Shown here one piece after another: positions 6,777-60,000 of a stretch of DNA of 60,000 nt (within the stretch, counting starts at the first letter, position 1; each line of letters begins with the position of its first letter). The notes beneath the pieces are model-generated. The model was not told where the DNA came from, searched no databases, and worked only from the letters and a program-made list of their open reading frames with translations. The translations under genes and the position numbers were made by a program. Origin of the DNA: Malacoraja senta (Eukaryota); NCBI GenBank assembly GCA_038087875.1, contig CM075992.1:7256001-7316000 (forward strand). The letters run 5' to 3'.

Positions 6777-6813
6777 GTGTAAAGAGAAAGAGAGAGAGTG
6801 CAAAGGTGTGGGA

Positions 6814-8889: not shown

Positions 8890-9300
<411 letters not shown>

Positions 9301-10472: not shown

Positions 10473-10604
10473 GTTTTGGGGGACCAATCAACGCCGATCA
10501 ACAGCAGGATGAAGACTGCGCTCTGATGCATCCAGATGGGATCATGCGCGATTGGCCAATGCAGTTCCATCTATTTCTTCATCTGTGAAAAACCAGAACA
10601 GTGA
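10473..10604 (+). pseudogene. Orphan terminal exon of a C-type lectin domain (gene A), QPD-like, two apparent frameshifts
   Basis: Acceptor TTTTCTTTCCCCTCAG, phase 2 like the last exon of gene B. Removing two single extra bases gives FWGTNQPDQQQDEDCALMHPDGIMRDWPCSSIYFFICEKPEQ*, parallel to gene B's ...WICEKPAQ*. Confidence 0.8.
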
Positions 10605-11360
10605 CACTTCCCCCCGGTCTTGACAGTCGGGACAAAACGGACAGCCAATCTGTCTATAAATGTCCCACACCTGTGTAACAAGTGAGCAGCCGGTAGCCGT
10701 GTTTGGCCATATGGGTGCGTAACCCTCCCTCTCCCTCCCTCCCTCTCACCACTGTATCCAAACTAAAGCCACTGATCAGATTCTGCATCGCTCCTTTATT
10801 CTACTCCAACATCGCATAGAACCACCATTCAGGTATATCCGAAGAAAGCACCCGATGTTGCCTGCCCCACGGAGTTACTCCAGCACATTGTATTCTCTGC
10901 GGGAATGTCTTATAATTCCCGAACCCACTCATACCCTCACTCACCCCCCACTCATGCATTCACTCTTTCTCCACCCCTCTCCCACCCTTGTCCTGTACTT
11001 TTGCTAAATTAAGTTGTTCTGCATTTCCCAAGTTTTGTTTTAATTTTTCACAACCTGTGTGCTTCATTTGCCGGTTTCCAAGCCAAGGTATCCTGGAATC
11101 TAAGGAATTCTGTAAGATCAAAATCAATGCACTTCCCTCACTTTGCTACAGAGCACACGCCCATGGATGTTGGCATATTGTAAAAAAAAACCACTAACTT
11201 TTGCTATGAATAGTCTGCAATCATCGGTGGCTCCATAATGAACCTGACAACAATGAGTTTAGCTCGTGCTTATATTTCCCGATTGCCCTTTATATATGGC
11301 GGCCTAGCTAGATTGCATTATATTGCCAAGCCCTGAGGTTTGGTGTGCCATTGAACTCAG

Positions 11361-11665
11361 ACGGCACAGTGGCGCAGCGGTAGAGCTGCTGCCTTACAGC
11401 GCCAGAGACCCGGGTTCGATCCTGACTACGGTGCTGTCTGTGCGGAGTTTGTACGTTTTCCCCGTGACCCGCATGGTTTTCTCCGGGTTCTCCGGTTGCC
11501 TCCCACAATCCAAAAGACTTACAGGTTTGTAGGTTAATTGGCTTCTGTAGAACTTGTAAATTGTCCCCAGTGTGTGTAGGGTAAGTGTTAGTGTGTGGGG
11601 ACCGCTGGTCGTCATGGACTTGGTGGACCGAAGGGCTGATTAAGCGGTGTATCTCGAAACTGAAC
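11361..11665 (+). mobile_element. HE1-like V-SINE
   Basis: GGCACAGTGGCGCAGCGGTAGAGCTGCTGCCTTACAGCGCCAGAGACCCGGGTTCGATCC head followed by V-domain. Confidence 0.85.
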
Positions 11666-14055
11666 TAGAAGTAAACTCACCATGCTGTTGTACCCTAAAT
11701 TGTATCAAAAGGAATCAGCACCATCCGCTGTACACTAGTGGGAACGTGCCATATTTCTACATCACCAGAGGAATATACCCTATACAAAGAGAGGGAGAAA
11801 AGCAGTGGATAAACTGCACTCTGAATAAACATCTAAAACTAATGCAGGATTACGGAATCCTGCACAACTTTTACAAAGATTTTCAAACAAAATATTTTTT
11901 TCACTGGATCTCGCTGCACACGACAATAATAAACCTACTCACTAATAACTTGGCGGTCACTTGTATGTCCTTTCCTCTCTCTGATGAAATGTCAACAAAT
12001 TGAAAAATTTCGTGAATATTTCTGACGTTGTTGGGGGATATTTAAAAAAAAAGCACAATAGAAATAGCAAATGCAAAATCAGAATGCTGATCTCACTTCT
12101 CATCCTACATTATTTATCCTGGATTTTCTCTTCCTCTCGTTATTACATTAATAGGTGGACACAAAATGCTGGAGTAACTCAGCGGGGGCAGGCAGCATCT
12201 CTGGAGAGAAGGAAAGGGTGATGTTTCAGGTCGAGACCCTTCTTACAACTCGACCCGAAACATCAAATGGGTTAATATAAGTGACTGGGTGACCAGTGGT
12301 CAGCATGGACTCAGTGGGCCGGAAGGGCCCGCTTCAATGCTGCATCTCTAAACTGAAGTTAACTGAGCGTGATTGGGGGAGGGGGTCAAACACAGTCACT
12401 GTGGGAAGGGAAGAGCAGGGTATTAGCTGCCTTAGCTCAGGCCGATGCAATACAGAGCTGCAAATCCAAGCATCCACCCTGCAGAACATTGAACAGCTCA
12501 ACAAAGGAACGGGCCCTTCAGCCCACAATGTCCATGCCGAACATGATGCCAGATTAAACTAATTGATTCTGCCTGTACATGATCCATATCCCTCCGTTCC
12601 CTGCCTGTCTATGTTCCTATCTAAAAGCCTCTTAAATATCTGTTAAAATAGTTTAATTTGGCATCGTATCTTCCTCCACCACTACCCCTGGCACCCACAA
12701 CCCTCTGTGTAAAGAACTTACCCTGCACATTTACATCAAATTTTTCACCCTCTCATATTTTCCTTCGTGGGGAAAAGGATTCTGACTGTCTACCCTATCT
12801 ATGCCTGTCAGAATTTTACATAATTTTTATGAAGTCTCCCCTCAAACCTCTGACCTTCCAGAGAAATCAATTTAAGTCTATCCAACCTCCAACATTAGGT
12901 TTAGACGAGCTACGTACCAATATTTGACTATGGGAGTGTGTAGGGGGTCACCTGAAATGAACGGAACTGGGCGTCTGCCGGGTTCCCACCCGGCTGCGTG
13001 TAGACCTGGGGAACTCCCCAAAGGACCAAAATATGGGTGCTAAATAGATGAGTTAAATCAATACCATGGTGTACTGACTGCCACGGCTATATCAACAACA
13101 CAAACGGCAGACATTTTCCCGCTGCAAAAGTGGCCGCCGGACACCCCACAAAGGGCCTAAAAAATGGACTAGCATTTAGACGAGCAATCTACCAGTCAAA
13201 AATAATGCCAAATGAACAAGTTGAATTCATAGAGTACAAAATGGGTTAGGCCAGAAAAACAGTCCGCTGCACTACAGGTACCAGACACCCAAAAAGTGGA
13301 CACCCTAGACCCTGCAGTCCAAATAGGCTAGCCTAGATATTGTGGGGTACCAGTTTAAACCAAGTTTAAATAATCCAGCACACCTTGGGGTAAATAAATT
13401 GACCTATGACAGAACGATTATATGCTGCATTGGGCATACCAGACACCCTAAATGGACCCTTGGGCCAATCTAGGCTTGCCTAGATATTAAAGGTACCAGC
13501 TAAAATCAGGTTTAGATGGTCAGTCACAGCCTGTGGAATACAAAATGACCCATGCCAGAATGATAACCAATTGCCTTGGCCGTACCAGACCCCCCCCCCC
13601 CCCCCCCCCCAATATGTCCTTGGACCCAAGTAGGCTAATCTAGGTATTAAAGAATGAGCTGAACCAGGTTTATATGATCAACCACAACCTTCGGCTAGTG
13701 AATACAAAGTGGCTCATGTCAAAATATTAACCACTTTTATCCCCCCTCATCCTTCTTAACTCCAGTGAATACAAGCCTAGTCTTTTCAATCTTTCCTCAT
13801 ATTACAGTCCCGCCATCCCAGAGATCAATCTGGTGAACCTACGCTGCACTGACTCAATCACAAGGACCAGTCTAATGAAATCATCTTGTTATGAAGGCCA
13901 AATTTCCATTAGCTTGCTTCACTGCCTGCTGTACCTGCACGCCACCTTTCAGTGACTGGTGTAGAAGGACACCCAGATCTCGCTGTACCTGTCCCTTACC
14001 TAACCTAACACCATTGAGATAATAATCGGCCCCCTTGTTTTTGGCACCAAAAGCG

Positions 14056-14135
14056 GATAACCTCACATTTATCTATATTCACGTGCATAACCTCACATTT
14101 ATCTATATTCACGTGGATAACCTCACATTTATCTA
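14056..14135. repeat. 30-bp tandem repeat (~2.7 copies) inside the CR1
   Basis: ATAACCTCACATTTATCTATATTCACGTG(G/C) repeated. Confidence 0.85.
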
Positions 14136-14262
14136 TGTCACGCATCTGCGCACTCACTCAACCTGTCCAGGTCACCCTGCAACCTCCTAACATCCTCTTC
14201 ACGTGTCACACTGCCACCCAGCATTGTGTCATCCGCAAACTTGCCAGTGTTGCTCCTCATTC

Positions 14263-14496
14263 AAGATTCAAGATTCAACATTTCCTTTATTGTCATTCAG
14301 ACCTTTCGGTCTCAATGAAATTGTGATGCCTGCAGTCATACACAGAACCAATAATAACAAAACATACAATAAACACAAATTAAAACACCCACCACAGTGA
14401 GTTCACCAAGCACATCCTCACTGTGATGGAGGCAAAGTCTTAGGCTCCGTCTCTTCCCTCCTTGTTCTCCCTCTGCGCTGAGGCGATCGATCCAGG
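14263..14496 (-). mobile_element. Short non-LTR insertion (LINE 3' end or SINE) with AATAAA and (TCTTGAA)n tail
   Basis: Interrupts the CR1 RT between ...CTCCTCATTC and ATCCCTCTTCC. The minus strand ends ACAATAAAGGAAATGTTGAATCTTGAATCTTGA. Confidence 0.6.
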
Positions 14497-16175
14497 ATCC
14501 CTCTTCCATATTATTAATATAGTTGGTAAACAGTTGCGGCCCCAACACCGAGCCTTGCGGCACTCCACTCGCCACTGCCTGCCATTCTGAAAAGGACCCG
14601 TTCACTCCTATTCTTTGCTTCCTGTCGGCTAACCAATTTTCTATCCTTGTCAACACCCTACCCCAATACCATGTGCTCTAATTTTAGTCACCAGTCTCCC
14701 GTGCGCGACCTTATCAAAGGTTTTCTGAAAGTCGAGATACACTACACCCAATTGTTCCCCTTCAACCATTTTACTTGTCACATCCTCAAATAATTCCAGA
14801 TTAGTCAAGCATGATTTTCCTTTCATAAATCCATGATTACTTCGACTAATCCTTTTACTGCTATCCAAATGCCCCATTATTACCTCTTTAATAATTTACT
14901 CCAGCATCTTTCCCACCACCGAAGTCAGGCTAACTGAATTGTAATTCCCAGTTTTCTCTCTCGCTCCTTTCTTGAAAAGTGGGATAACATTAGCTATCCT
15001 CCAATCCACAGGAACTGATCCTGAATCTATTGAACATTGGAAAATGATCACCAATGCGTCCACTATTTCTAGAGCCACCTCCCTGAGGACCCTGGGATGC
15101 GGACCATCAGGCACAGGGGATTTATCATCCTTCAGTCACATTAGCCTACCCAATACTATTTCTCGCCAAATGAAATTTCTTTCAGTTCCTCTACCCCCTT
15201 AGGTCCTCTGTCCTCCAATACACCTGGGAGATTGTTTGTGTCTTCCTTAGTGAAGACAGATCCGAATTACCTGTTCAACTCTTCTGCCATTTCCTTGTTA
15301 CCCATAATAATTTTACCCGTGTCTGCCTTCAAGGGACCCACATTTGTCTTTGCAACCCTTTTTCCCTTAACATATCTAAATAAACTTTTACTGTCCTTCT
15401 TTATATTCCTGGCCAGCTTCCCGTCACACTTCATCTTTTCAGCCTGTATTGCCCGTTTTGTTTCCTTCTGTTGTCCTACGAAAGTTTCCCAATCCTCTGG
15501 CTTCCGGCTACTCTTTGCTGTTTTATACATCTTTTCTTTCAGTTGTATTCTATCCCTAACTTGTCTTGTCAGCCACGGTTGCCTCCTACTCCCCTGAGAT
15601 TCTTTCTTCCTTTTTGGAATGAAATGATCCTGCATCTTCCGGATTATTCCCAGAAATTCCTGCCATTGCTGTTCCACCGTCATTCCTGCTAGGATCCCTT
15701 TCCAGTCTACCTTGGCCAGCTGCTGTCTCATGCCTTCATAATCCCCTTTGTTCAACTGCATCACCGACACTTCCGATTTAACCTTCTCCTTCTCAAATTG
15801 CAGATTAAAAGGAATCATATTATGATCACTACCTCCAAGAGGTTACTTTACCTCGAGTTCTCTTATCAAATCTGGTTCATTAGACAACACTAAATCCAGA
15901 ATTGCCATTTCTCTGGTCGGCTCCATTACAAGCTGCTCTACGAATCTATCTCGGAGGCACTCTACAAACTCTCTTTCTTGGGGTCCTGAACCAACCTGAA
16001 TTTCCCAGTCTACCTGCATATTGACATCCCCCATCACCACCGTGGCATTACCTTTGTTACATGCCAGTTTTAACTCCTGCTGCAACTTACACCCTACATC
16101 CGGGCTACTATTTGGGGGTCTGTAGATAACACCAATTAGTGTCTTCTTGCCTTTACAATTCCTCAACTCAATCCA

Positions 16176-17153
16176 TTGCTACGCAGACGATACACAACTC
16201 TATCTCCCACTGAAGCCCCAAAACCAATCAAATCTGTTTAACCTTACCCACTGCCTGGAGGATATAAAGTGTTGGATGGCCCAGAACTTCCTCCAACTAA
16301 GCGAGAGTAAGTCTGAGGTCATCCTTCTCGGCCCCTCGGACTCAATCAAAATGATAGCAGGCAGCCTTGGAAGCCTTACCCCACTACTCCAACCTCACGT
16401 CAAAAACCTTGGCGTGATATTTGACTCAGCACTGAAATTTGACAAACAAGTCAATGCCGTGGTAAAAGTTAGCTTCTTTCAGCTTCGGACGATAGCTAAA
16501 ATAAAACAATTCCTCCAGTTTGATGACCTGGAAAAGATCATCCACACATTCATCTCCTCCCGCCTAGATTACTGCAACCCCCTTTACACTGGCATCAGCC
16601 AATGTTCCCTGTCCCGCCTGCAACTGGTCCAAAACGCCGCAGCGAGACTCCTGACGGGCACACGAAAAAGGGACCACATCACCCCGATCCTGGCCTCTCT
16701 CCACTGGCTCCCTGTGCGGTTCCGTATAAACTTCAAGATCCACCTCCATGTCTACAAAGCCCTCAATGGGCTTGCCCCCACCTACATAAAAAGTCTTCTC
16801 ACCCACCACTCCACCCCCAGGCCCCTCAGATCGGCCTACTTGGGTTGCTGAATATCCCGCGGTCTAGGCATAAGCTCTGGGGCGACCGTGCCTTTGGGGT
16901 TGCAGCCCCTAGACTGTGGAACAGCAACCCCTTTCCCATCAGAACTGCCCCCTCCATCGACTCTTTTAAGTCAAGACTAAAGACTTATCTATACACCCAA
17001 GCCTTTCCTGACGTCCTCTGAGTGAGGACTACATGTATATATGTATGTAGTCTGTTTTGTTGTGCTATTCTTATAAAAAATGTAAAGCACTTTGGCCAAG
17101 GAGAGTTGTTTTTTAAATGTGCTATATAAATAAATGTGACTTGACTTGACTTG
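16176..17153 (+). mobile_element. 5'-truncated L2-clade LINE inserted into the CR1
   Basis: YADDTQLY, WMAQNFLQL, SRLDYCN, LQLVQNAAARLL, HITPILASLHWLPV; (GACTT)n tail; TSD AATCCA at 16170-16175 and 17154-17159. Confidence 0.92.
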
Positions 17154-18454
17154 AATCCACAGTGACTCTACCTCGTCAGTCCCTATGTCTTCCCTCGCAA
17201 GGTACTGAATTCCATCCCTCACCAGCAGAGTTACCCCCCCCACCCCCCTCCTCTGCCTACCTGCCTGTCCTTTCTATAGGATGTATAACCCTGAATATTA
17301 AGTTCCCAGGCCCGATCCTCCTGCAGCTACGTCTCAGTAATCCCCACAATGTCATATCTACCAGCTCATCTACTTTACTTCTTATACTTCGCGCATACAT
17401 ATGCCATACTTTTAATTCCTTATGCATCTCACCTTTCACATCGATCCATATTAAACTTGGCCATACTCTCCTATCCCTTCGTGAGCTTTCTTTCCCGTTA
17501 ATTCTGGGGTCATTAACCATCCCTTTACTCTCTTTCCCTTTAACTCCGTCCTCGACTATCCCATTTGACAACCCCCCACCCCCCTTATTTAGTTTCAAAT
17601 TTGGAGTTAATATCTTTCGAATTTAAAGGTTTAATGTAACTATGTAACATAACTAACATTAGGGGTCGGGTTAACATTTGAGTCTGTATTCTTTAATGAA
17701 TCATTCCTTACACAAGTATATTAATAATAAACTTTTAAAATACATTGGGCTTCATACAAATGAGCTTGGGACCAAAGTGTCAATTTTGGACCACATGTTT
17801 GCCATCGGGCTAAATGTTTGTTTTAAATGATCAACCACACCTTGGGGAATGCCTTGTGCCTATCAGTCCCTCAACTCCCTCCAGTTGGCCAATTAAGGGA
17901 CTATTTGGGGAGTCTGGTAGGACCATGGCAATGGATTATTATTCTGGCGTGGGTGATTTTGTATTTCCTAGGCTGTGATTGATCATCTAAACCTGGTTTT
18001 AGCTGGTACCTTTAATATCTAGGCTAGCTTAGATGGGCCCAAGGGCCCATTTAGGGGGGTCTGGTAGACCTAAGGCAGCGGATAATTGTTCTGTCATAGC
18101 TCATTTTATATCCCCCAAGGTGTGATAGGTCATTTAAACTAGGTTGTAGCTGGTACCCACAATATCTAGGCTAGACTAGTTGGGCAGCAGGTGTCCATTT
18201 TGGGGGTGTCTGGTACCTGTATTGCAGCGGACTATTTGTCTGGCGAAACCCATTTTGTACTCTATGAACTGAACTTGTTCATTTGGCATTATTTTTGAGA
18301 GGTACCTTGCTCGTCTATATGCTTGCCCCATTTTAGGCCTTTTGTAGGGAGTCTGGCGGGCCTTACAGAACAATGTCTGCGTTTTGTGTTATTGATATAG
18401 GCGTGACATTCAGCACACCATGGTAGTGGATTTAAGTGATACCTCACATCACAT

Positions 18455-18595
18455 CCCGTTAGCGCCAAGAGTCGCTAAGTTGCGTCCACGAGTTCCGAAG
18501 TTCCCGCTACGTTAATTGTACGTGATTACCACGAGTTAAATTTGTTTTAAACTCGGGGTCACTCCTGGGTCAACTCGCACAGTGAGACAGCCCTT
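18455..18595. mobile_element. Probable end of a PIF/Harbinger-type MITE
   Basis: Ends CACAGTGAGACAGCCCTTTA, resembling GGGCTGTCCCACTG-type TIRs with a TWA target. The other end was not found. Confidence 0.4.
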
Positions 18596-18720
18596 TAAGA
18601 CGTAAATAACATGCCCCGAGTCGCAGACCGTAATTTTGGCAAGAATCTCTCTCTCATCACTACGAGCCTTCGGTTCGTACCACTCCAGTTTTGAAAAACA
18701 TTCAAAATTAGAAGCAGCTG

Positions 18721-18795
18721 CACTTCCTGAATTAAGCAGAAGTAATTTGGAATTGTGAATTTCATCACGTCATTTGACCATTGGTATTGCGTAAC
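18721..18795 (+). promoter_or_regulatory. Putative myeloid promoter of gene B: ETS/PU.1 site and C/EBP site
   Basis: CACTTCCTG at 18721-18729 (= CAGGAAGTG on the other strand) and ATTGCGTAAC at 18786-18795, 80-150 bp upstream of the ATG. Both are identical in the paralogue. Confidence 0.55.
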
Positions 18796-18874
18796 CTTGT
18801 GGGAGGCGCAGATGATTTTACTCTCATTCGGCCGCGCATGTTCTTCAAAGACTAGAAGGTCTTCAAGCTGAAAC

Positions 18875-18956
18875 ATGGAGCAGATGGACTGTTGTGCAAA
18901 CACTGATGAAGTTCGCCCCAATGAAAAGAATAGCCGGCGGAGAAATCTGAAGACAG
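18875..18956 (+). CDS. C-type lectin gene B exon 1 (cytoplasmic tail)
   Basis: ATG in AACATGG context; MEQMDCCANTDEVRPNEKNSRRRNLKT; phase-1 donor ACAG|GTGGGC; conserved in the paralogue. Confidence 0.8.
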
Positions 18957-19327
18957 GTGGGCTCCTTGGTGTTTTGAATTTATTCTGTTCCAGCGGTTGA
19001 GGTGGCATTCAGTTTCGAAGAAAGGAGAGACGGGGGTTGATTATCCTCTACTTTGATCTTGCATAAGCGGGTGCCCTTATAGGTCCATTGGGATCCAATG
19101 TCAAGAATGCGCAACACCTCTATTCCCTGTCGAGTTTAGATATCTATCCTGCTGTGGGTTCCGATATTGAGGAATCGGGTGTTGGACAGTTTACAGATTC
19201 CAGTACTGACAAAACACGGCTCCTTTGCCCCAATCCTCCGTAGTAAACAAGGAAATACATTCCGATTTTTTTTCTACTGACGTTTCCCTCACCTACTTTA
19301 TGAGATGTCCTTCATTGCATTTTGCAG

Positions 19328-19447
19328 ACCGTAGCATGAAAGCGGAGGACCGTAGCAGACACAAACTCTCCGCCCCGATCGTCTACTCTCTGCTGGGACT
19401 CAGCATCCTGTTATCGGCTGCGGCTCTCTGCGTTGCAGTTATTTTGT
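19328..19447 (+). CDS. C-type lectin gene B exon 2 (type II transmembrane anchor)
   Basis: TTTTGCAG acceptor, 120 nt, phase 1-1; DRSMKAEDRSRHKLSAPIVYSLLGLSILLSAAALCVAVIL; GTAAGT donor. Confidence 0.88.
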
Positions 19448-19988
19448 GTAAGTTGTGAAATAATAAATCTCCAAAATGTGAAACATGTCTTATTGTATAA
19501 AATAGCAAAACTAACAAATGTGCCGATAATTATTTGATTGGTAATTGTTGGATCAACCTTCGTGGTTCTGATATTGATTGAGGGGCAGGGGGCGGGAGCG
19601 TATGCAGTGAGCTGAACCAATTCAGGGGAATATGAGAATTAAGCTCATTGTGTCTGTCGGAGGCTTTTCCACCCGAAAATGCTGTTAATTCCGTATTTTC
19701 CATGCCTTTTTGCGGGTGGAACCGTGATAAACACACAACTCCAAAGCGGATTAAAAAGCCCGCAGCAAGGTCCATTTTGAATTGAGTTGAGAGAAGTGCA
19801 AAATTCTAAAGTGGGTCATCACTTTCATGGACTGATCCCCCCAACCTCTCCCCCCGTTGATTCGTGTTTCTTGTGATACGCACCTAGTTTGTAAGAAGCC
19901 GGATGATAACGTTTCTAAGCAAGGAGAAAATGGAACTTGCCCGAGTATAACAAAAGTCATATTTCGAAAATTTCAAATGTCTGCACGT

Positions 19989-19998
19989 ATTGCGCAAT
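19989..19998. promoter_or_regulatory. Perfect C/EBP palindrome in intron 2
   Basis: ATTGCGCAAT, also present at 58834-58843 in the paralogue. Confidence 0.4.
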
Positions 19999-20320
19999 GT
20001 TCTTTAGTAACCTCACCGAGTCAAAATAATACTTGGCGCGCTTCGTGCTCCTCGGGTCACACTGGGCGTTATTTCTGCCTTCTGAAACTACCCGGTTTCA
20101 AAACTCCACAAGGAACTGATTCTCAAAGTAGACGCAGTTTCACTGCCTAACTTCAATATCAGCATGCACAAACCCCACTCCCCAATTCTCGCACTATGTG
20201 TCCCCACTAACGGAAAACCAGTGTGTCGGAAGGAACTGCAGATGCTGGTTTAAACCGAAGATAGACACAAAAAGCTGGAGGAACTCAGCGGGACAGACTG
20301 CATCTCTGGAGAAAAGGAAT

Positions 20321-20357
20321 GGGTGACGTTTCGGGTCGAGACCCTTCTTCAGACTAG
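20321..20357 (-). ncRNA. Minimal hammerhead ribozyme motif in a Penelope-derived fragment (~20222-20410)
   Basis: Minus strand reads GT-CTGAAGA-A-GGGTCTCGACCC-GAAACGTC-ACCC: CUGANGA core, 4-5 bp stem II, GAAA, palindromic ACGT and a GUC triplet. Confidence 0.7.
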
Positions 20358-22201
20358 TTAGGGAAAAGGGAAACGAGAGATATAGATGAGGATGTAGATA
20401 GATGGAGAACAGTGAATCTCGGGATGTCAGCAGACTTGGTTAAACATCCCACTGATAAAACAATCCCCAACATAGATATTTTTGTAGTTGCCACTTCCTT
20501 CCAATCCGGTTATCCTACCTTCTCCCACCTAACCAGTCTTTGAGAGGGGCACAGTGCCATAGGTTTTCATTTTCATCAACAGCCTTCCGAATGTCAGACC
20601 CTGGTATTCTGATGGGATTTCCCCATTGGAAAAGGAATGGTGAGTGTGAAATTCAATCTGACACAGGTCCGTTTCTCAAATGCAGGGAGATCTCTTGTTG
20701 GCCTCTGTTCATATCCAGACTCCAGTCCTGTCTCCGCCTGGAGCTAATTTCTCGGCTGGTGGATTGGAATCCATCTAGTGGAATTTGCAACAAAGAGTGC
20801 ATCAGTGTAGGTCAAACTCGCAGCAATATATATCCTGTAACCACTTCACTGGTTAGATTGTGTCTGGGGTGACATTGGACGGAAAGTCTTCAAAGAAAAA
20901 CGGATCTTGGGACAGAATGTTTAGAGTGTGGCTGAATAGTTTGAGTCGATTGGGGGTGGAAGAGCGGTGCTAGAGGTGACGTGTTCGTTTCTATGCCACA
21001 GGAATTACGTCGAGGCTTGTAGCAGAGGCGAGTGGTCCTGAGATAATACACGTTTCTGACTTGGGATTCTAAAGTCAGGGACGAGTGTGAGGTGTGTAGG
21101 GTGGGGTAAAGTTGGAGAAGAGCGACGAATGGAAGTGGGAGAGGGGGTAGAAGAATGTGGGAGTGGGAGATGGTGGTGAGTGAGTGCGAGGGTGGATACA
21201 GGCAAGATGGACCAGGAGTCATTGTACCGGGGGTAAAGTGAAATCCCTTTGTTGCGTGCTAACCAGTCAGCAGAAGGATAATACATGATTACAATCGAGC
21301 CATGATTACAATCGGATCAAAGATTGTCCGATGGTCACCAATGACGTAGATAGTAGGTTAGGGCTTGTCTCTAGTTGTGGTCGGATGATCCAGTTGCTTC
21401 TGTATCTGGGATGGGGTGTGTTGGTGGGGGGGGGGGTTGGTTTTTAAACTTGCCCAGCTACTCATCCTTTCTTACCAACGATACCAGTTGCCCTGGAAGG
21501 GAAGATTACATGGAAGGGTGATATGAACACGATAGAACTCCTGTGAAATGAAATTGGTTGCAGCTGCTTCGGGCTGGGTCACCAGTACAGTGAGAGTGAA
21601 AGGCAACCGTTTGGGTGCCCAATGTGAGGGGAGTTTAAAGAGTGAGGTTCAGCCTATTTGCTCAGTGGCCTCTTATTCAATAGCAACATACCAGGTCCTT
21701 TGACCGACATGCCCAATATTCACTACACTGCGCAGTCAGATCGCAATCTAAGCTGCGTCCATTACAGAGATTCATTGACAGGGAGGGTGAGATAGATGGT
21801 GGGAATTAACTCGGCAGGTAAGAAAGATGGTGAGCAAAAACTCAAGTCTTACAATGGCAATGTAAAAATGTCCGGGATACCATGGAGAAAAGCTTGGAAT
21901 AAAAGCACAAAGCCGGCTGAGCGCACGTCAGATCAATTTATGGTCAATCCAATTAGTCCAATCCAGTATGCCCGTGGCTAACCCGGACTTTCTCCAACTG
22001 CAACTAGTGGTTCTTGGGGCCCTGCTATATTCTTGCAGGATGATGTGAATCATCGCAAAACGATTCAAATTTCCCAGATTCTCAAACCTATAGAAACCGT
22101 AGATTTCAGGTGAATTATGGAAGGGACTGGAATGCCGCCGTCGGAACAGGTTTAATCGAGAAACAGGCTCCGAACGATCTAAACTATTATCCCTTTTTCA
22201 G

Positions 22202-22267
22202 TTATAGGGAACATTGAGAAGGCAATTGCCCAACTCTACAAGGTCCAGACTGAGATTCCACGGCACG
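22202..22267 (+). CDS. C-type lectin gene B neck exon
   Basis: CCCTTTTTCAG acceptor, 66 nt, phase 1-1; (F)IGNIEKAIAQLYKVQTEIPRH(G); GTAAGT donor. Confidence 0.72.
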
Positions 22268-22769
22268 GTAAGTATGATGATCTTTGAAATGAGAAGAGGA
22301 TTCACAAATCAGAGATGCAAGGGGACTTGGAAGTGCTTGTGCAGGATTCCCAAAAGATTAATTTGCATGTTAAGTCGGTGCAAAGGAAGGCAAATGCAAT
22401 ATTGGCATTAATTTCGAGGGGTCTAGAACATAAAAGGATGTAATCCTGAGGCTTTAAGAGACGAAGGTCAGGTCATATTTGGAATATTGTGAGGAGTTTT
22501 GACCTCTGTACCTGAGGAAGGGTATATTGGCATTGGAGAGAGTCCAGAGGCTCTGGATTTTAGGATAAGCGAGATCGCATTGAAAAGCCAAGATAGAGTG
22601 GATGAAGAAAGCATAGTGACTTTCATCATTCTAATCAGATCTTTCCGCAGTCTTCGCCTTCTCCCTATAATAGCAATGATTGAGGTTATTCGTTGCTACC
22701 CGATGGTCTGGGCTGACACCTTTGTTCTGGAATCAACCTCGCCCATGTTTCCCACACGTTCCGCAATGT

Positions 22770-22995
22770 TTAGTTTAGTTTTGAGATATAGCGCGGGAAC
22801 AGGCCCTTCGGCCCACCAACTGAGCACCGACCAGCACACTAACAATATCCCACACACACCAGGGACCAAGCCAATTTACTCAAAACCTGTACGTCTTTGG
22901 AATGTGGGAGGAAACAGAAGATCTCGGTGAAGACCCACGCGGGTCACAGAGAGAACGTACAGACAGCACCTCTACCGCTGCGCCACCGTGCCGCG
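22770..22995 (-). mobile_element. Internally deleted HE1-like SINE
   Basis: Reverse complement of the SINE head (CTACCGCTGCGCCACCGTGCCG), V-domain and tail. Confidence 0.7.
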
Positions 22996-23168
22996 CTGCT
23001 TTCTATTATGTAAAACGTTTATCTAAACTGGCCCCGCATGATTGTCTCGATAATTGAAACTGGAAGAGTGGTGAAGGTTTTTTACCCTCGTTTCGATCAT
23101 CCAGATATGGCCGGAAATATTCCCGTCTGAAGCGGACTCCTCTAACATTTACCTCAATATCTTCACAG

Positions 23169-23314
23169 GTGTGCATTCTTGTCCCGAGGAATGGACCAAG
23201 TTCAACCAAAGCTGTTATGACTTTTCCTCAAGCTTGGCCATCTGGGTGTTGGCCCAAAGATCCTGTGCATTAGACGACGCCCACTTAGTTGTCATTAATA
23301 ATGCTGAAGAACAG
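23169..23314 (+). CDS. C-type lectin gene B, CTLD exon 1
   Basis: GVHSCPEEWTKFNQSCYDFSSSLAIWVLAQRSCALDDAHLVVINNAEEQ; long-form CTLD cysteines; CTTCACAG acceptor, GTAGGA donor, phase 1-0. Confidence 0.95.
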
Positions 23315-23940
23315 GTAGGAGTTTTTCTGTGATAACACCTGCAGGCCACGACCCCTGTTAAGTGATACTTTCGATCCACTACGATGCGTGTTGCTATTCC
23401 TATTAGAAATTAAAGTAATGTTTGACCCGGACAGTTTGCGTTCACACGCGGGATAGTCTGAGCGCAATCACACACCACTTGTATTTTCGTGGAAATATCA
23501 CCTGTTTCTTTGTATCGCATGAAATAGCGGTAGATATCTGGATCTGGATCTGGATCTGGGTGTAATACGCTGAAAAGCTCTAGGTGGAGCATCACTCAGC
23601 TCTATGATGGTGATGGACGTGCTAGTCGAGATGGAGATGCTTTTGGAGATGCATCTTTGTATGTGTTGATGTTTTAGAGATCTCTGATGCTGGCTGGTGG
23701 GGTATTCCAATCCCTTGCTGTCTTGAAGAAAAACGAGTTAGAAAGTGCTAATGAAGTGCCGTGCGGAATGAAATAATTTCCAGGTTGGTAGCTTCTGGTT
23801 GACATGCCTATGGGTGCTTGGATTAACTGGATGTGTTCCTCCATCTTTAAATCAATGGTGGTATTCTTGATCTTGTGGAATGTTGTCAGTCTGATGAACT
23901 TGCCACGAGTACTAGGTGGATGAAGTTTAAGGTCCTTTAT

Positions 23941-28487: not shown

Positions 28488-28951
28488 ATATATCATGTGG
28501 AGACTGAGCTCTGTCACGCAGTTGTTAGATATGAACCTTGCTGCTCTGTTTTGCTGGTATTCAAAGCACCAGGCTGAGCAACAAGGCACAGGAGGTAGCC
28601 CCAGTAGCAGGGGTTTGATGTGGGAGGGTCTTGTTGTGTGTGTGGTTCTTGGAGACCGTTTGTGGGCCGTGTTCTACGAGTTAACCTCCAAATGCAGAAA
28701 GAGCTTTCCGTACACGAGCACCGCCATAAAAGACATCGTCAAAGTCCTGCTTGATATTTAGGACATCAGCTTTGTAACCAGGACATGTAAACATGGAAAA
28801 TGCAAAACACATATCCCTCTCACCCTATATCTGCATAGACGAGCGTTATAGAGCAGGATAAATATTACACGGGGTTGTATATACAAGTAATACAGTACTG
28901 TCATCAGCTATTGTTCGCACATGTACTGACATCATTTTGTTTACATGACAG

Positions 28952-29061
28952 AGATTTTTGAAGAGAAAAAATAATGTCCGTCGGTGGATTGGCCTGAGCG
29001 ATTCGGCCTCTCAAGATGACTGGCGCTGGGTAGATGGAACTGATTATAATTCCATTGTAAA
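28952..29061 (+). CDS. C-type lectin gene B, CTLD exon 2
   Basis: RFLKRKNNVRRWIGLSDSASQDDWRWVDGTDYNSIV(K) with WIGL motif; phase 0-2; GTGAGT donor. Confidence 0.95.
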
Positions 29062-30357: not shown

Positions 30358-30489
30358 GTTTTGGAATGAGGGAGAACCCAATAATGCGAACAAGAATGAA
30401 CACTGCGGGGAAATTTTCATGATGGAAGTTGGAATGATCAACCGTGTGAAAATAATCAGAAGTGGATCTGTGAGAAACCAGCTCAGTGA
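30358..30489 (+). CDS. C-type lectin gene B, CTLD exon 3 (EPN, WND) with a 1-nt frameshift
   Basis: FWNEGEPNNANKNEHCGEI, then one base short in the T4 run at 30414-30417, then HDGSWNDQPCENNQKWICEKPAQ* (TGA at 30487-30489). Confidence 0.9.
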
Positions 30490-33227
30490 TGTGCTCCTTA
30501 ATTCGAAGTTCGTGCAAAATGTGCAATGAACCGGCTTGGCATGTTGAACATGTCGCAGGAATGTGATAGCAGTGTAGGAGGCCATTCGAATTACGTGGTC
30601 TTTGCTGACATTTTGCAAAATGCTTTCGAACCTTTTCGCACCTTTTCTCCAGTAGCGCTACCCAATATTTGGCATCGTGTTCTGAGCAGATGCCATTTCC
30701 AAATCCTTGAGTTGTCTGTTTCAGACAATCCCGCAGCACAATTTTCGATCAACACCACTAGCAGTGAAAAGAGGGCTTTCTCCACCCCCCCCCCCCCCAC
30801 ACACACACACACACACACACGCACACCCCTATCAACCGCAAATCCTATGTGTATCACTTTGAATTAATCCCTGCTGATTCTTGGAGCATGCTGTAATGGA
30901 CTAACTTCACTATCTTAGCTCAATCAAATCCACCAGAACCCCATGTATCTCATGGAATGCTCTACTATGTGACTCCCAAACTACTATCCGGTATATATTC
31001 AGAGTTCGAAAGTCTCAACCCCGGAGGCAGTCTAATTCACTACCATCCCACTCTGGCCGTCCGACAAGATGGTTCATTACAGTCCCTTGGACCTCCAGTG
31101 CAACTACTCACAGGTTATGCCTCGTCCTTTAAAATGCTCGAATGATTTTGGTTGTGCAAACCTAACAACTATAAACGTGCCTTGTTTCGTAGCTGTAACT
31201 GAACCTGTGTAGGTAAGCTGATTTATTTTCTATTCCCTGGCATGGAATGGATTTGAAAACATTATTCTTATAATACTTCCACAGGAACTTCATCTCTTTA
31301 GACAGTCCTCTCTACCTAACCTCATCTTTCTCCGCCCCACACACACTTCCCAATTCCTCCCGGTCTCAGGGGCAATTTAATAAACTGTTTTGTAACTGTA
31401 GGATTGTTCTTTGGATCTGAAAGTTTATAAACCACTGGAACGTGTTTATCTCTTTATTTTACACCGTTAAATAAATCCCACATCTGTGATCTTCAATAAC
31501 GCAATGTGTGGGATTAATTCTGCGGGTCGGACAGTGTGTGTGCGTGTGCGTGTGCGTGTGCGTGTGCGTGTGCGTGTGCGTGTGCGCGCGTGTGTGTGGA
31601 GGTAGGTGGCGTTTCGCTCCTGACCCTGGTATGGGAGATGAAGGAGTACATACAGGTCGTTGTTGGAATGGGAAGGACAATTGAAATGTCATCCAACACG
31701 GAGCTCGGCATGTGAGTGTAGAGGGATCAGAGGGGTCGTGACGTCACGGGCGGAATGGTCCCTGACGGAAGCGGAAATGTAGGGGGTTGGGAAGATGATG
31801 CTAGAGGTGGAATGTCATTGTAAATGGCAAATATGGCGACGATGCAGGAGCATGGCCCTTCCCTCTATTCATATCCACACCTCCCAGAGCAGCAGGAATC
31901 CCTCGAGAATACATCGCTCTTCCCGTTAGGTTTCTTGACAGACTAAATGAACATTTACTGCTATAATGACATCAAACCTCAAGCAGGTAGTACTGGGTTA
32001 ATAACCGGGCAGGAGTAAAGCTATCGTCTCCCCACCATCATTTAATTACATCATTCTTATATTGCCGTGTGAATGAATGGAGGCGATAGGTCTCCTGATT
32101 AAATTAAACTTACTTTCTATACGCCATGACATCTCAGTCTGAAATTCCGCTTATTTACTCAAAGTTGTCTGTAAAGGGGAGCAACGAGTTGCCGGGTGGA
32201 TTAGTTGAGGCAGGTAAAATAATAATATTTAAAAGACATTTGCAGGAGGGGATAGACCGTCAGCCCAGAGACATTAGGTTAGACGAACTAGGTACCAATG
32301 ACTGACTATGGGAGTGTGCAGGGGTCACCTGAAATGAACGGAATTGGGAGTCTGCCGGGTACCACCCGCTGCGTGTAGACCTTGGGGACTCCCCAAGTGG
32401 CCAAAAAATGGTGCTAAATAGATGAGTAAGGTACCACTTAAATCTACCACCATGGTGTGCTCACTGTCACGCCTATATCAACAACACAAACGGCAGACGT
32501 TTTTCGCGCTGCAAAAAGTTTCGCCAGACCCCCACAAAACAGCCTAAAAAATTGCTAGCATAGACAAGCAAGGTGCCACTCAAAAATAATGCCAAATGAA
32601 CAACTTGAGTTCATAAGAGTACAAAATGGCTTACGCCAGACAAATAGTCCGCTGCAATACAGGTACCAGACACCCCAAAATGGACACCTGCTGTCCAACT
32701 AGGCTAGCCTAGATATAGTGGGTACCAGCTAAAACCAAGTTTAAATGATCTATCACACCTTGGGGGATATAAAATGACCTATGACATCACAATTATCCGC
32801 TGCCTTGGGTCTACCAGACCCTCTAAATGGGTCCTAGGGCCCATCTAGGGTAGCTTAGCTATTAAAGCTATCAGCTAAAACCAGGTTTAGATGATCAATC
32901 ACAGCCTAGCAAATACAAAATCACCCATGCCAGAATAATAATCCATTGCCTTGGTTATACCAGACTCGCCAAATAGTCCCTTAATTCCTCAACTGGTGGT
33001 GGGGGGTGGGGGGGGGGTGAGTTGAGGGTCTGATAGGCACAAGGCATTCCCCAAGGCGTGGTTGATCATTTAAAGCAAACATTTAGCACGATGGCAAACA
33101 TGTGGTCCAAAATTGACACTTTGGTCCCAAGCTCATTTGTATTAAGCCCAGTGTATTTTTAATGTTTATAATTAATGTACTTGTGTAAGGAATGATTCAT
33201 TAAAGAATAACAGACTCAAATGCCGTT

Positions 33228-33728: not shown

Positions 33729-33752
33729 GTAGCGGGGGGGGAGATATCAAGG

Positions 33753-43314: not shown

Positions 43315-44403
43315 GAATCTGAGAAGACCGCTTCTGTGTCTCGCGTTGTCAGACCGATCCATATGTGTGCTCTGATAACCAGTTTATTAAGATATCTTTA
43401 ACACAAGTTCTCCCAGACCCAAGTACACGGAAGTATGGGATATTGACATTGTGTTAACACTTCTTCACCACGGGGCTCCAGCGATATCCCTATCTTTGGC
43501 TCGGCTCTCATAAGGTAGTTATCCCCTTGGCGCTGTCCTCAGCGCAACGGGTCCAGTCATTACATAAATTGCGACTCGACAGGATGGTTACACCTGCTAC
43601 ATACAATATTTCATGTTTACGATTTAGTAAAGCAGGGCAGCCCAGGGGTGTCAGGTATCAAACTAGTTCTCATGGCATACCCCATGCACCTTCGGTTATG
43701 TGTGGTCACACATTTACAACATTACGTCAAGGTAATCTAGAGCCTTAGAGGCTTTGTACTAGCGATGTTTGTTAGTTACAAAAAAACCCTCATAAGAAGG
43801 TATCAGTTCAGATCATCTCCAGGTGGTTAAAACGGGGTTTTGGCTTATACATGAGTAGACAACTAATTTTCAAATCTCACTCCACCAGGGCTGCTACAAC
43901 ATCAGCAGCAAGGGTTATGTACGGTCACTGTGGACCACATCCTGCCGACTGCAGGATGGTCTAACGAACGAGGTTCCAACATTTTATTTTAACCATTGCC
44001 AGACCAGGGGTATTTGCCAACTCTATTTAGATTCTATTTTATAGTTACCCCTGGGATGAGAGGGGTTACTACTATTATTATTTGTTCATTTATCAGCATC
44101 AGCATGTTTTAAATCTATGTCATGTCTGTATGCATTATGAATGTTTCCCTTATCTGTGGTCAACTGATGCAGTCGTGCTTGTGTGGACTCGTTTTTCCAC
44201 GGCATGAAATCACAGAGCTTCAAAATCTTCACGGAGTCACTCACGTGATTCCGAAGTAAAATAGTAAGATTAAACGAGAATTTACCAGTTTGACGTTTGA
44301 TCTTTATTTTATGAGGAGTTACGATGAGCGATTATGTGCCCTCCAACTCCCAACCCTCGTAACATAAAGATCTTCTGGAAGTTCTAGTCATCTCTAATCT
44401 TAC

Positions 44404-46466: not shown

Positions 46467-46666
46467 NNNNNNNNNNNNNNNNNNNNNNNNNNNNNNNNNN
46501 NNNNNNNNNNNNNNNNNNNNNNNNNNNNNNNNNNNNNNNNNNNNNNNNNNNNNNNNNNNNNNNNNNNNNNNNNNNNNNNNNNNNNNNNNNNNNNNNNNNN
46601 NNNNNNNNNNNNNNNNNNNNNNNNNNNNNNNNNNNNNNNNNNNNNNNNNNNNNNNNNNNNNNNNNN
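46467..46666. other. Assembly gap (200 N)
   Basis: Run of N. Confidence 1.
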
Positions 46667-48470: not shown

Positions 48471-50751
48471 GGTTGTGTAACAATGGTTCGAAGATGCCCA
48501 ATATGATGTTCTTTAAACTTATTTGTGTGAAACGCTGTTAAACCACAATAATCATTTCAGTTTACTAACATTACTGAAAGAACAAAATCTCGAGGTCGCC
48601 ATGGTAACTGTATTTGAGGTTAGAGGACACCTGTACAAAAAACGAAAAGTTTGTTATGGCAAAAATAGAAAATGATTTCAGCTTTTGAAGGAAAATGCAA
48701 ATGATTACAGTACCAACAGTTGTGCAAGTTGTTTAGGTAATTTTTTCAAGCAAAACCTCACCTCATTTACAAATACAAATGGAAGTGATATGATGACCTA
48801 AGACTAGATATGCAACTGTTGGTACTTTGCATTTTGGTCTTTCAAATGGACTACGCATTGCTAAAACCACACAGACATTAGAGCAAAGCTCACTGGCATA
48901 TTAAGATGCGTCCAAACACTGCTTCACCAGGTCATTTACCCGGTTTACAAAATGAACAAAAAATTCTTAATGAAATTAAATTACATGACTTTCTTAAGGT
49001 GGCTTGGGATTTACGCTAAGCTAAGTAAATATTGCAAATGTTCCACTGTAATATATGGTAAGTAAATATTGCAAATATTCCAAAATTCATACTTACAATT
49101 TTAATCACGAGACTGAATGTAATGAATCTAAAGTACAGAACAAATATCTTCAAACTATTTGCTGACCATGCCACAGATAAAACATCCTATAATGGCACTA
49201 ATTGAACCTGACCATAAACAAAATTATTGAGTTTAATATTTTACGCTTACACTCAATGCATTACTACTGATATTGCAATTATGTCCATACTATAGGATGC
49301 ATGATACGGCTTTCCATAGATTTTCTTAATGACGGGGGATGGCTGTAAGCTGATCAAATTAAAGTCCATCCCTCCTTAAGCTAAATCACCATCAAATAAT
49401 ATAATATTCCGGCTTAAATTGTACTTAGGCCTATATAGCAGAGTTTATTGCACAAATTCCACATGGATTTTATATGCACTTGCTGATACATGATCCTAAC
49501 CACGTGTCAGTCATTGTACCTCTATGCAGGCCATGTGCTCTGGGCATGGCATTGCCCCATGGCATTGGTTTTAACGTAAATTATCAACTGAACACTATAA
49601 CTGAATCATGCATGATATCTCTGCATTATAATAGCAAACTATAATTATGTAGCAAAGTAAAACAACTTACCTCAAACAGCCGTAAACAGTGATTCTTTAC
49701 TGCAAAATCTCCCATCCAATCCGATGATGATATATTGTTTGGCTGCAGCTAAGGAGAGCTTGTCACCGCATTCAGCCAAATGGCCAAATATATAGAAAGC
49801 CAAATAGGACACTCCAACAGTTTATACCCACTATTAGCCTCTTCTCCTTCTTTTCTCATTGAAATGGGTTGCTGTGGAAATGGTCGATAAAGTGGTTAAT
49901 TTTTGGACATGAGTCACTTTGTATTCACTAGCCGAAGGTTGTGGTTGATCATATACACCTGGTTCAGCTCATTTCTTTAATACATTGACTAGACTACTTG
50001 GGTCTCAGGACTTATTAGGGGGGGGGGGCTTGTACGGCCAAGGCAATGGGTTATCATTCTGGCATGGGTCATTTTGTATTTGACAGGCTGTGATTGTTCA
50101 TCTAAACCTGATTTTAGCTGCTACCTTTAAAATCTAGGCTAGCATAGATTGGCCCAAGGGCCCATTTAGGGGGTCTGGTAGGCCCAATGCAGCAGATAAT
50201 TGTTCTGTCATAGGTCAATTTATATTCCCCAAGCTATGGTAGATCATTTAAACTTGGGTTAAACTGGTACCCACAATATCTAGGCTAGCCTAGTTGGACA
50301 TCAGGGTCTAGGGTGTCCATTTTTGGGGTGTCTGGTACCTGTATTGCAGCGGACTATTTGTCTGGGCTAACCCATTTTGTACTCTGAATTCAACTTGTTA
50401 ATTTGACTATATTTTTGAGTGGTACATTGCCCGTCTATATGCTAACCCGTTTTCTAGGCCCTTTTTGTGATGGGTCTCGCGGGCCTATTGCACCGGGAAA
50501 AATGTCTGCCGTTGGTGTTGTTGATATAGACGCGGCGGTGAGCACACAATGGTAGTGGATTGAAGTGGTACCTCGCTCATCTCATTAGCAACCATTTTTT
50601 GGGCCCTTGGGGAGTCCCCCATGTATACACGCAACGGGCGGTATCCGGCAGACTCCCAATTCCGTTAATTTCAGGTGACCCCCTGCACACCCCCATAGTC
50701 ATATATTGGCACCTAGTTCTTCTAACCTAATGTCTCTGGGTTGACGGTCTA
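48471..50751 (+). mobile_element. Long-TIR DNA element, copy 3 (internal part plus intact right TIR)
   Basis: Direct repeat of 37135-39107 with large indels; ends TCTAACCTAATGTCTCTGGGTTGACGGTCTA. Confidence 0.85.
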
Positions 50752-56780: not shown

Positions 56781-57569
56781 TAAATGCCATGGGGAGAACG
56801 CACAGACTCGGTACAGACAAGCAACCGTGGTCAGGATCGAACCCGGGTCTCTGGCTCACTGAGGTGGTGCAAGGCATTTGATAAGGTTCAGCGTGGTAGG
56901 CTGATTGCACGAGATCGAGGGAGAGCTAGCCGAAATATATGGAGAATTGGCTTCATGGACGGACTGAAATTGAATACATAACCAATGGCATAGAATAGTC
57001 AATCGCTGGTTGGAGGTACACAACTCTGATGGTCGAATTAAACATAGGCATACGCACACACAGACACACGAGCGCGCGCACACACACACAAACACAAACA
57101 CACGCACGCACGCACATTTCTAAGGGATGGAGAATAGAAGGCAGCGACTACATAGTTGCAATGGAGTTCTTAAACCAATGGTTAAAACAAAACCACTTCA
57201 GCCACTAGTGGTGGGAGGGTTGTGTATAGCGGCAGCAATCGCACTACTCAGTACTAACGATCTCCAGCCTCTTGATGTTTGACCTAACGCCTCTCAGTCA
57301 AGGGAGTTAGGAATGTTACATCAACCTGAATCTTGGGCATGGCGGAGAGCGTTGAATTAATTAGCAGCTAATTTAATTTAATGATGAAGTTTACATCTGG
57401 CCCCGGACGAACGGTAAATCTATACGCGTCCACAGAGACGGGAATAACCCCCCCCCCCCCCCCCCCCAGTCGCAGACCGTATTTTTGGCGGGAATCTCTC
57501 TCTCATCACTAGGACCCTTCAGTTCATACCACTCCAGTTTTGAAAAACATTCAACATTAGAAGCAGTTG

Positions 57570-57644
57570 CACTTCCTGAATTAAGCAGAAGTGATTTGGA
57601 ATTGTGAATTTCACCACGTCATCTGACCATTGCTATTGCGTAAC
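57570..57644 (+). promoter_or_regulatory. Putative myeloid promoter of gene C (ETS/PU.1 + C/EBP)
   Basis: CACTTCCTG at 57570-57578; ATTGCGTAAC at 57635-57644. Confidence 0.55.
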
Positions 57645-57723
57645 CTTGTGAGAGGCGCAGATGATTTTACTATAATTCGACCGCGCATGTTCTTCAAAGA
57701 CTAGAAGGTCTTCAAGCTGAAAC

Positions 57724-57814
57724 ATGGAGCAAATGGACTATTATGCAAACATTGATGCAGTTTCGCCCAATAAACAGAATAGAGACGATTGCTGGCCGGG
57801 GAAGCTGAATACAG
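57724..57814 (+). CDS. C-type lectin gene C exon 1 (cytoplasmic tail with YxxI motif)
   Basis: MEQMDYYANIDAVSPNKQNRDDCWPGKLNT; phase-1 donor ACAG|GTGGGC. Confidence 0.8.
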
Positions 57815-58184
57815 GTGGGCTATTTGTTGTTTTGTCTTTATTCTGCTCCAGTGATGGAGTTGGCATTCAGTTTTCGAAGGGAGGGATGGGGGTTGATTAT
57901 TCTCTATTTTAATCTTACATAAGCGGGTGCCATTATCGGTCATTTGGGATACAGTGTCGAGAATGTGCAACACCTCTATTCCCCGTCGAGTTTAGATATC
58001 TATCCTGCTGTGGGTTCCCATATTGACGAATCTGGTGTTGGACAGTTTACAGATCCCTGTATTAGCAAAACACAAGGCTCCTTTGCCCCGTGCTCCGGAG
58101 TAAACAACGAAATACATTCCGATTTTTTTTCTACTGATGTTTCCCTCCCCACTTTATGAGATGTCCTTCACTTCCACTTTGCAG

Positions 58185-58304
58185 ACCGTGGCATGAAAGC
58201 GGAGGACCGTAGCCGACACAAACTCTCCGCTCCGATCGTCTACTCTCTGCTGGGATTCAGCATTCTGTTATCGGCTGCGGCTCTCTGCGTTGCAGTTATT
58301 TTGA
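58185..58304 (+). CDS. C-type lectin gene C exon 2 (transmembrane); remaining exons presumably beyond the window
   Basis: DRGMKAEDRSRHKLSAPIVYSLLGFSILLSAAALCVAVIL, 120 nt, canonical AG and GTAAGT sites. Confidence 0.88.
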
Positions 58305-60000
58305 GTAAGTTGTGAAAAAAACCTCTAAAATGTGAAGCTTGTGTTATTGTATAAAATGTCAAAACTAATGTGGATATAATTAATTGATTGGTAATTGATG
58401 GGTCAAATTTCGTGGTTCTGATATTAATTGAGGGGCAGGGGGCTGGAGCGTGTGCCGTGAGCTGATCCACATCAGGGGAATATGAGAATTAAGATCATTG
58501 TGTCTGTCGGAGGCCTTTCCACTCGAAAATACTGTTAAATCTGTGTTTTCCGTGCCTTTTTGCAGTTGGAGCCGTAAATAAAACACAACTCGGATTAAAA
58601 AGCCTGGAGCAAGGTACATTTTGAATTGAGTTGAGAGATGCGCTAAATTCTAAAGTGGGTCATCACTTTCATGGACTGACCCCCCCCTCCCCCCCCCAAC
58701 CTCTCCCCTCGTTGATCCGTGTTTCTTGTGATACGCAAGAAGCCGGATGATAACGTTTCTAAGCAAGGAGAAAAGGAACTTGCCCGAGTATAAAAAAAAG
58801 TGTTATTTCGAAAATTTCAAAGGGTCTGTACGTATTGCGCAATGTTCTTTAGTAACCGCACCGAGTCAAAATAATACGTTGGCGGGCTTCTTGCTCTACA
58901 CGCCACACTGGGCGTTATTCCTGCCTTCTGAAACTACGTGTTTTCAAAACTCCACAAGGATCTGATTCTCAAAGTAGACGCAGTTTCACTGCCTCACTTC
59001 CCAAGCAGCATGCACAAACTCCAATCCCCAATTCTCGCAATATGTGTCCCCGCTAACGGAAAACCAGTGTGTATGAAGGAACTGCAGATGCTGGTTTAAA
59101 CCGAAGATAGACACAAAAAGCTGGAGGAACTCAGCGGGACAGGCAGCATCTCTGGAGAAAAGGAATGGGTGGCGTTTCGGGTCGAGACCTTTCTTCAGAC
59201 TAGTCAGGGAAAAGGGAAACGAGAGATATCGATGAGGATGTAGATAGATGGAGAACAATGAATGAAACATCATTAAATCACGGGTTATCAACAGACTTGG
59301 TTAAACACCCCACTGATAAAACAATCCCCAACATAGATTTTTTGTAGTAGCCACTTCCTTCCAATTCGGTTATCCTACCTTCTCCCAGCTAACCAGTCTT
59401 TGAGAGGGGCACAGTGCCATAGGTTTTCATTTTCATCAACAGCCTTCCGAATGTCAGACCCTGGTTTTTGGATGGGATTTTCCCATTGGAAATGGAATGG
59501 TGAGTGTGAAATTCAATCTGACACAGGTCCGTTTCTCACATTCAGGAAGATCTCTTGTTGGCCTCTATTCATATCCAGATTCCCGTCCTGACTCCGCCTG
59601 GAACTAATTTCTCGGCTGGTGGATTGGATCTCATCTAGTGAAATTTGCAACAAAAGGTGCATCAGTGTAGGTCAAACTCGCAGCAATAGATATCCTGTAA
59701 CCACTTCGCTGATTAGATTGTGTCTGGGGTGACCTTGGACGGGAAAACTTAGAGTGTGGCGGGAGAGTTTGAGTCGATTGGGGCGGGGGAAAGCGGTGCT
59801 AGAGGTGACGTGTTCGTTTCTATGCCACAGGAATTCCGTCGAGGCTTGTAGCAGGGGCGAGTGGTCATGAGATAATACACGTTTCTGACTTGGGATTCTA
59901 AAGTCAGGGACCAGTGTAAGATGTGTAGGATGGGGAAAAGTAGGAGAAGGGCGACGGATAGAAGTGGGAGAGGGGGGTAGAAGGATGTGGGCGTGGGAGT

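Follow-up and report, generated by a model that had tools for sequence, protein, structure and literature searches.

Tandem group II C-type lectin receptor loci in Malacoraja senta, two frameshifted as assembled and one a candidate live copy

We analysed a window of 60,000 nucleotides from Malacoraja senta (assembly GCA_038087875.1, contig CM075992.1, positions 7,256,001 to 7,316,000 of the forward strand). Three C-type lectin loci, here called A, B and C, follow one another on its plus strand, as a first-pass annotation made from the sequence had proposed. The DNA is that of a vertebrate and is rich in repeats. Group II receptors that belong to the family with a C-type lectin domain (CTLD) consist of an N-terminal cytoplasmic tail, one transmembrane (TM) segment, a neck and a single C-terminal CTLD. 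The CTLD is of the long form, with six cysteines, a WIGL motif and a Ca2+ site 2 made of EPN or QPD followed by WND. The exon layout of this group, attributed to the loci by the annotation, holds: tail, TM and neck have separate exons and the CTLD is spread over three (Table 1). The order tail-TM-neck-CTLD is present in the spliced translation of B, and tail, TM and neck are present in C.

Table 1. Features of the three lectin loci in window coordinates; P numbers designate homologues from the databases.
Feature	Position	Strand	Remark
A terminal CTLD exon	10473..10604	+	QPN/W[HR]D class; two frame changes; clade with seven class-mates
B 5′ flank	18614..18874	+	Homologous to C 57463-57723; candidate promoter
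B exon 1, cytoplasmic tail	18875..18956	+	9-nt deletion relative to C
B exon 2, TM segment	19328..19447	+	Helix without charged residue; 35 of 40 residues identical to P0009
B homologue of first neck exon of C	19716..19769	+	Acceptor CGG, not CAG; probably skipped in frame
B neck exon	22202..22267	+	Matches necks of P0001 and P0004
B first CTLD exon	23169..23314	+	Matches Leucoraja erinacea model, 77% identity
B second CTLD exon, WIGL	28952..29061	+	Gln in place of conserved Glu
B terminal CTLD exon, EPN class	30358..30529	+	Frameshifted at T run 30414-30417
C 5′ flank	57463..57723	+	Homologous to B flank; TATA-like hexamer 57671-57676; candidate promoter
C exon 1, tail with YYANI motif	57724..57814	+	Open; 25 of 30 residues identical to Amblyraja P0009
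C exon 2, TM segment	58185..58304	+	Open
C exon 3, first neck exon	58566..58613	+	Open; remaining C beyond window

Locus B has six exons with GT-AG at every boundary and cumulative splice phases of 1-1-1-0-2, as first described; its intron 4 measures 5637 nt. Pfam Lectin_C matches the B CTLD pieces with E-values of 0.031, 0.00012 and 0.0013 (three of the five window pieces scanned). The annotation had further considered B complete, which is not borne out, because the terminal exon leaves the lectin frame at its T run. Alignments of P0004, P0006, P0008 and P0009 to this exon all switch between two frames, with the junction at 30415-30424. Spliced as written, B encodes 231 amino acids and ends at the stop codon 30527-30529, the stop of the homologous frame lying at 30487-30489; EPN is kept in frame, WND and the last two cysteines are not. 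All six CTLD cysteines are encoded in the DNA across the break, but in two frames. Ca2+ site 2 is absent as one open frame from both B and A and present in P0004, P0007 and P0009. Given the established structure of the CTLD, the as-written product loses the closing strand and both core disulphides and should therefore not fold.

Other changes in B go beyond the frameshift. Both tyrosines of the YYxNI tail motif shared by C and the skate homologues are replaced by cysteines, and the Gln of the second CTLD exon takes the place of a Glu at least 80% conserved across 30 other elasmobranch rows. The TATAAT hexamer of C, noticed in a promoter scan with a bacterial model that was used for that only, differs at two positions from its B counterpart (18822-18827). 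The neck exon that B probably skips is retained in Leucoraja P0001 as well as in C. Reads of four sequencing runs were placed on 10460-30459, where they were swamped by repeats, and the results are those of the listed rows (with 94 indel rows besides). Run X1 has no letter other than that of the assembly at 29012 and 29016, and runs X2, X10 and X12 give the Glu-Gly of the family; the odd residues of B thus exist outside the assembly, with the proviso that X1 and the assembly may come from one sample. There was no exon-exon joint among 15 of about 6055 read joints, and a sequencing-run search with the last exon of B and its 3′ flank gave no RNA run among the matches listed.

The lectin frame of A changes twice, at 10492-10495 within the Gln-Pro-x sugar tripeptide and at 10559-10562 at the third cysteine, and the second sugar motif reads M-R-D; neither frame change had been mentioned in the annotation. 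A reading of the first motif as QPD was dropped because the frame break sits inside it. A had been regarded as an orphan exon. We found no upstream CTLD exon in 1-10472, but the window begins there, intron 4 of B alone measures 5637 nt, and upstream exons may lie beyond the window. A contig of 1137 letters from X12 covers 10494-10701, where it differs by 17 letters and 11 gaps, and was rejected as a check on the lesions since it is the sequence of a relative. Directly 5′ of the exon, a block repeated in tandem (91-93% identity) and containing long GA microsatellites occupies positions 3875-10342.

In C, the tail and TM exons seen earlier are confirmed and the first neck exon, previously unmentioned, can be added; all three are open and we consider C a candidate live copy. 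What the annotation called the promoter of C is a 5′ flank homologous to that of B, and as a promoter only a candidate. B and C share a duplicated 5′ block of 2.5 kb with 216 substitutions against 2277 matches and 22 gap events, the non-coding divergence being 8.3% (186 of 2243 sites). Exon 1 has diverged more, at 16 of 82 sites (Fisher p = 0.002 against the non-coding sites), which exceeds every one of 27 non-overlapping non-coding windows (maximum 13). The proportions of non-synonymous and synonymous differences (pN and pS) are nearly alike in this exon (0.22 and 0.18), and the divergent patch extends past the exon into intron 1 (10 of 56 sites); exon 2 has a pN of 0.023 versus a pS of 0.095. 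The divergence of the cytoplasmic motifs claimed by the annotation is thus real, but an adaptive cause for it is unsupported: positive selection on the tail of B was considered and set aside, as pN is close to pS and the divergence continues into the intron. The pattern would fit decay, or conversion by a third paralogue, as well as it fits selection.

A profile built from nine homologues, with which 8000 candidates were scored, gave 67 matches whose top 36 are elasmobranch type II lectins (35 of them named, from 12 species). Eight rows of Hemitrygon, six of Hypanus and five of Hemiscyllium, some being isoforms, lie on one contig each, and consecutive accessions on a single 205,564-nt Leucoraja contig include the A-type P0003 and the B/C-type P0001. 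Judging from these models, the array is common to sharks, rays and skates and not specific to skates. The C-terminus of P0001 matches intron 5 of B (29834-29950, 77%), from which it follows that the little-skate counterpart was modelled without the last two CTLD exons and may be broken too. P0002 runs uninterrupted on Logan contigs, none longer than 1471 nt, with the same exon 1-2 junction, and these contigs probably derive from transcripts. Among single-domain structures in the PDB, P0004 is best matched by DC-SIGNR (E 3.5e-33), Mincle and then DC-SIGN; four multi-CTLD receptors outscore them by summing domains. Multi-CTLD proteins make up almost all of the best 150 matches in a 50%-cluster search with P0003. 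The predicted fold of P0036 has a mean predicted local distance difference test score of 62.5, with residues 184-221 under 50, and is of no use for the sugar site.

A whole-CTLD tree was calculated from 54 rows, four having been dropped by pattern, and contains no mammalian CD209 or CLEC4 rows. It recovers a stingray/mobulid clade (99/93), a shark clade (99/96) and a clade of ASGR/CLEC10A rows of its own (100/99); the skate rows do not form one clade. B lies among skate rows, the closest ones being P0007 of Amblyraja and P0004 of Leucoraja, and the deep branches are unstarred. The lineage-specific expansion originally suggested thus holds in that paralogues group by lineage over the whole CTLD, but the array itself is pan-elasmobranch.

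Trees of the single CTLD exons tell different stories. They comprise 29 of the 36 elasmobranch rows (the other seven being isoforms of identical sequence or truncated models), P0009, 8 of 31 other rows, B and A. The last exon falls into two classes that both span sharks, rays and skates, EPN/WND with B and mostly QPN/WHD with A. Eight rows (three shark, two ray, two skate, and A) form a clade supported at 100/99, and at 100/100 both under a mixture model and after removal of the two motif blocks. The motifs are QPN and WHD in six of its seven members from databases and ELH and WRD in P0003. For this exon, one clade per lineage is rejected by the approximately unbiased (AU) test (p-AU 0.0011, 0.0009 and 0.0016). 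The first CTLD exon on the other hand sorts by lineage: the rays group at 93/94, and the test rejects a clade of the seven A-class rows (p-AU 0.00017). In between stands the second CTLD exon, with a p-AU of 0.014 for the A-class clade and four of the seven rows still grouping. Hemiscyllium ocellatum, Chiloscyllium plagiosum and C. punctatum (two records) all have the shark mosaic, and both Hypanus and Hemitrygon have that of the rays. B is itself a mosaic: over tail and TM it is identical to P0002, P0009 and P0010 at 48-51 of 64-67 residues and to P0004, P0006 and P0007 at only 19-22 of 65-67, and in the last exon the relation is reversed (22 of 39 versus 29-32 of 40). This mismatch was read directly from genomic DNA. 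On these trees the A-versus-B split of the sugar site is older than the skates, which further limits the claim of a lineage-specific expansion. P0027 (Rhinoraja) and P0041 (Hemiscyllium), both of the QPN/WHD class, are without the first two CTLD cysteines and may represent the unshuffled form of that class.

We conclude that the window is probably part of a pan-elasmobranch tandem array of group II lectins, in which A would be dead, B a young pseudogene or null allele and C a candidate for a live gene, turned over by unequal crossing-over and conversion. Intact members would form oligomers on the surface of leukocytes through the neck helix and bind sugars in a Ca2+-dependent way, and a YxN-hydrophobic tyrosine motif in the tail would drive uptake or signalling, as in DC-SIGN or Mincle; ligand, expression and cell type are read across from such receptors. 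Exon mosaics and dead copies would arise as the tandem genes, laden with repeats, cross over unequally and convert one another. A, a QPN/WHD-class terminal exon, would then be dead, and B would be a presumably non-functional EPN/WND-class gene, its tail and TM derived from one skate subfamily and its CTLD closer to another. Birth-and-death turnover is more firmly backed than the annotation could claim because two of the three copies carry frameshifts; tandem paralogues, pseudogenes and lineage-wise clustering are all found, B counting as a candidate pseudogene from the letters of the assembly. More generally, two old forms of a sugar-binding exon have apparently been shuffled within the array. 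A stronger version, to which we give an even chance, is that EPN/WND and QPN/WHD exons predate the shark-ray split and that sharks, stingrays and skates each grafted QPN/WHD independently onto their own receptor body at different exon boundaries. With tails swapped likewise, the outcome would be a modular germ-line repertoire of tail, neck and sugar site.

Several observations weigh against these conclusions. The break in B amounts to a single base of a T homopolymer, the type of error most frequent in long reads, and none of the listed read rows covers it or the breaks in A, which says nothing either way. The CTLD of B departs at only 4 conserved columns, within the 0-17 of 30 other rows, and thus appears hardly decayed. 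B might accordingly be alive, a tyrosine-less, short-necked EPN receptor paired with the tyrosine-bearing C, its frameshift being a homopolymer error of the assembly. This would agree with the GT-AG boundaries of its six used exons, the open frame in the other five and the low pN relative to pS in exon 2, and even the excess of changes in exon 1 could be counted in its favour. On the other side, a stop-free frame of a long interspersed nuclear element (LINE; 33729-36710 on the plus strand, 2982 nt, 994 codons) stays intact nearby through 82 homopolymer runs of 4 or more. It argues against a generally error-prone assembly, although it bounds the error rate only loosely, and the general rate it implies is incompatible with the three frameshifts that fall within 264 nt of terminal-exon sequence. 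A single assembly error in B alone is possible. However, the four changes that B carries besides the frameshift (in the tail tyrosines, the neck acceptor, the TATA-like hexamer and the conserved Glu) point the same way, and A, frameshifted twice next door, indicates that real decay occurs here. We therefore regard a live B as unlikely.

The exon trees rest on 35-46 columns each, and the homologues are mostly automatic gene models able to join exons of adjacent tandem genes. The conflict between trees might thus stem from chimeric models, or from alternative last exons in tandem arrays, instead of intergenic recombination. Errors do exist in the row set, as seen from P0001, which ends in sequence like intron 5 of B, and P0019, which is without a TM segment, and the A-class skate mosaic depends on a single model (P0003). 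We still find this explanation rather doubtful, if slightly less so than a live B, given that the shark mosaic occurs in three species and the ray mosaic in two genera, and that the mismatch in B needs no gene model. B and C could also be two haplotypes of one locus wrongly placed in tandem, since a gap of 200 N (46467-46666) separates them and stretches on either side of it (37134-39108 and 48473-50114) repeat each other at 88-94%. This is very improbable: 8.3% divergence and 22 gap events in 2.5 kb are far above usual allelic levels, and relatives bear several paralogues per chromosome.

Repeats fill much of the remaining window. The LINE between B and C encodes endonuclease and reverse transcriptase domains and appears to be a young insertion. 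Intron 4 of B holds two antisense frames, one matching reverse transcriptase (24255-25472, minus strand) and one with no Pfam match (26421-27404, minus strand). A repeat of ~800 nt with a 147-nt internal unit is present in five copies of mixed orientation and 82-88% identity (12892-13737, 17675-18447, 32253-33222, 38883-39108 and 49889-50751), one of them just 5′ of B. Positions 1-3700 and 39100-44400 contain related decayed elements, which we take to resemble DIRS-type retrotransposons; two frames tested there had no Pfam match. A minus-strand W-I-G-L at 43361 was rejected as a lectin, having neither CTLD context nor a tblastn match.

The locus is an ordinary tandem lectin array with dead copies, of a kind for which related genomes already have gene models. 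In RefSeq, elasmobranch models that go by the names CD209-like, CLEC17A-like, hepatic lectin-like or ASGR-like, which are best-hit labels and not statements of orthology, share its family, domain order and clustering on one contig (for example XP_032872926.1, XP_032868215.1, XP_032868216.1, XP_055522194.1 and XP_055522195.1). B is 65-82% identical per CTLD exon to its best matches, the EPN-class skate rows. Unlike these models, A and B are frameshifted and B is without tail tyrosines. We found no published description of the elasmobranch array in the literature searched, a search of main texts with most subscription journals outside its coverage. Mammalian DC-SIGN/DC-SIGNR, Mincle, CLEC10A and ASGR1/2 resemble the array in type II topology, neck and long-form CTLD, and the B class shares their EPN...WND; the A class has QPN/WHD where ASGR has QPD/WND. 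EPN/WND suggests binding of the mannose/fucose type, whereas the specificity of QPN/WHD is not predictable from the motif. Bivalve lectins with QPN/WHD-like motifs vary in binding, according to passages of one report (PMC12842671).

The relevant parts of a study of Fugu describe the group II CTLD genes DC-SIGN-F1 to F8, which form a tandem cluster restricted to their lineage and likewise have DC-SIGN and Mincle as top matches and no one-to-one tetrapod orthologues (PMC514892). That cluster is of a teleost, and neither a two-class last exon nor pseudogenes are described in those parts (PMC514892). In KLRC/NKG2 and DCIR/DCAR, the sections on merohomogenization report exon-wise homogenization within species of paralogues older than speciation, some members having last-exon indels (PMC3210942). 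There, the whole ligand-binding domain is homogenized and the opposing signalling parts are kept (PMC3210942), while in the elasmobranch array it is the first CTLD exon that is homogenized and the sugar-site exon that retains two old classes.

The importance of these findings is modest. Cartilaginous-fish lectin receptors seem little studied, and sharks are reported, in passages of two papers, to be without NK-cluster lectin orthologues (PMC8455134; NK, natural killer) and without mannose-binding lectin (MBL; PMC6795676). If the swapping of two exon classes is true, the array would offer a testable case of specificity modules kept through the whole age of the elasmobranchs.

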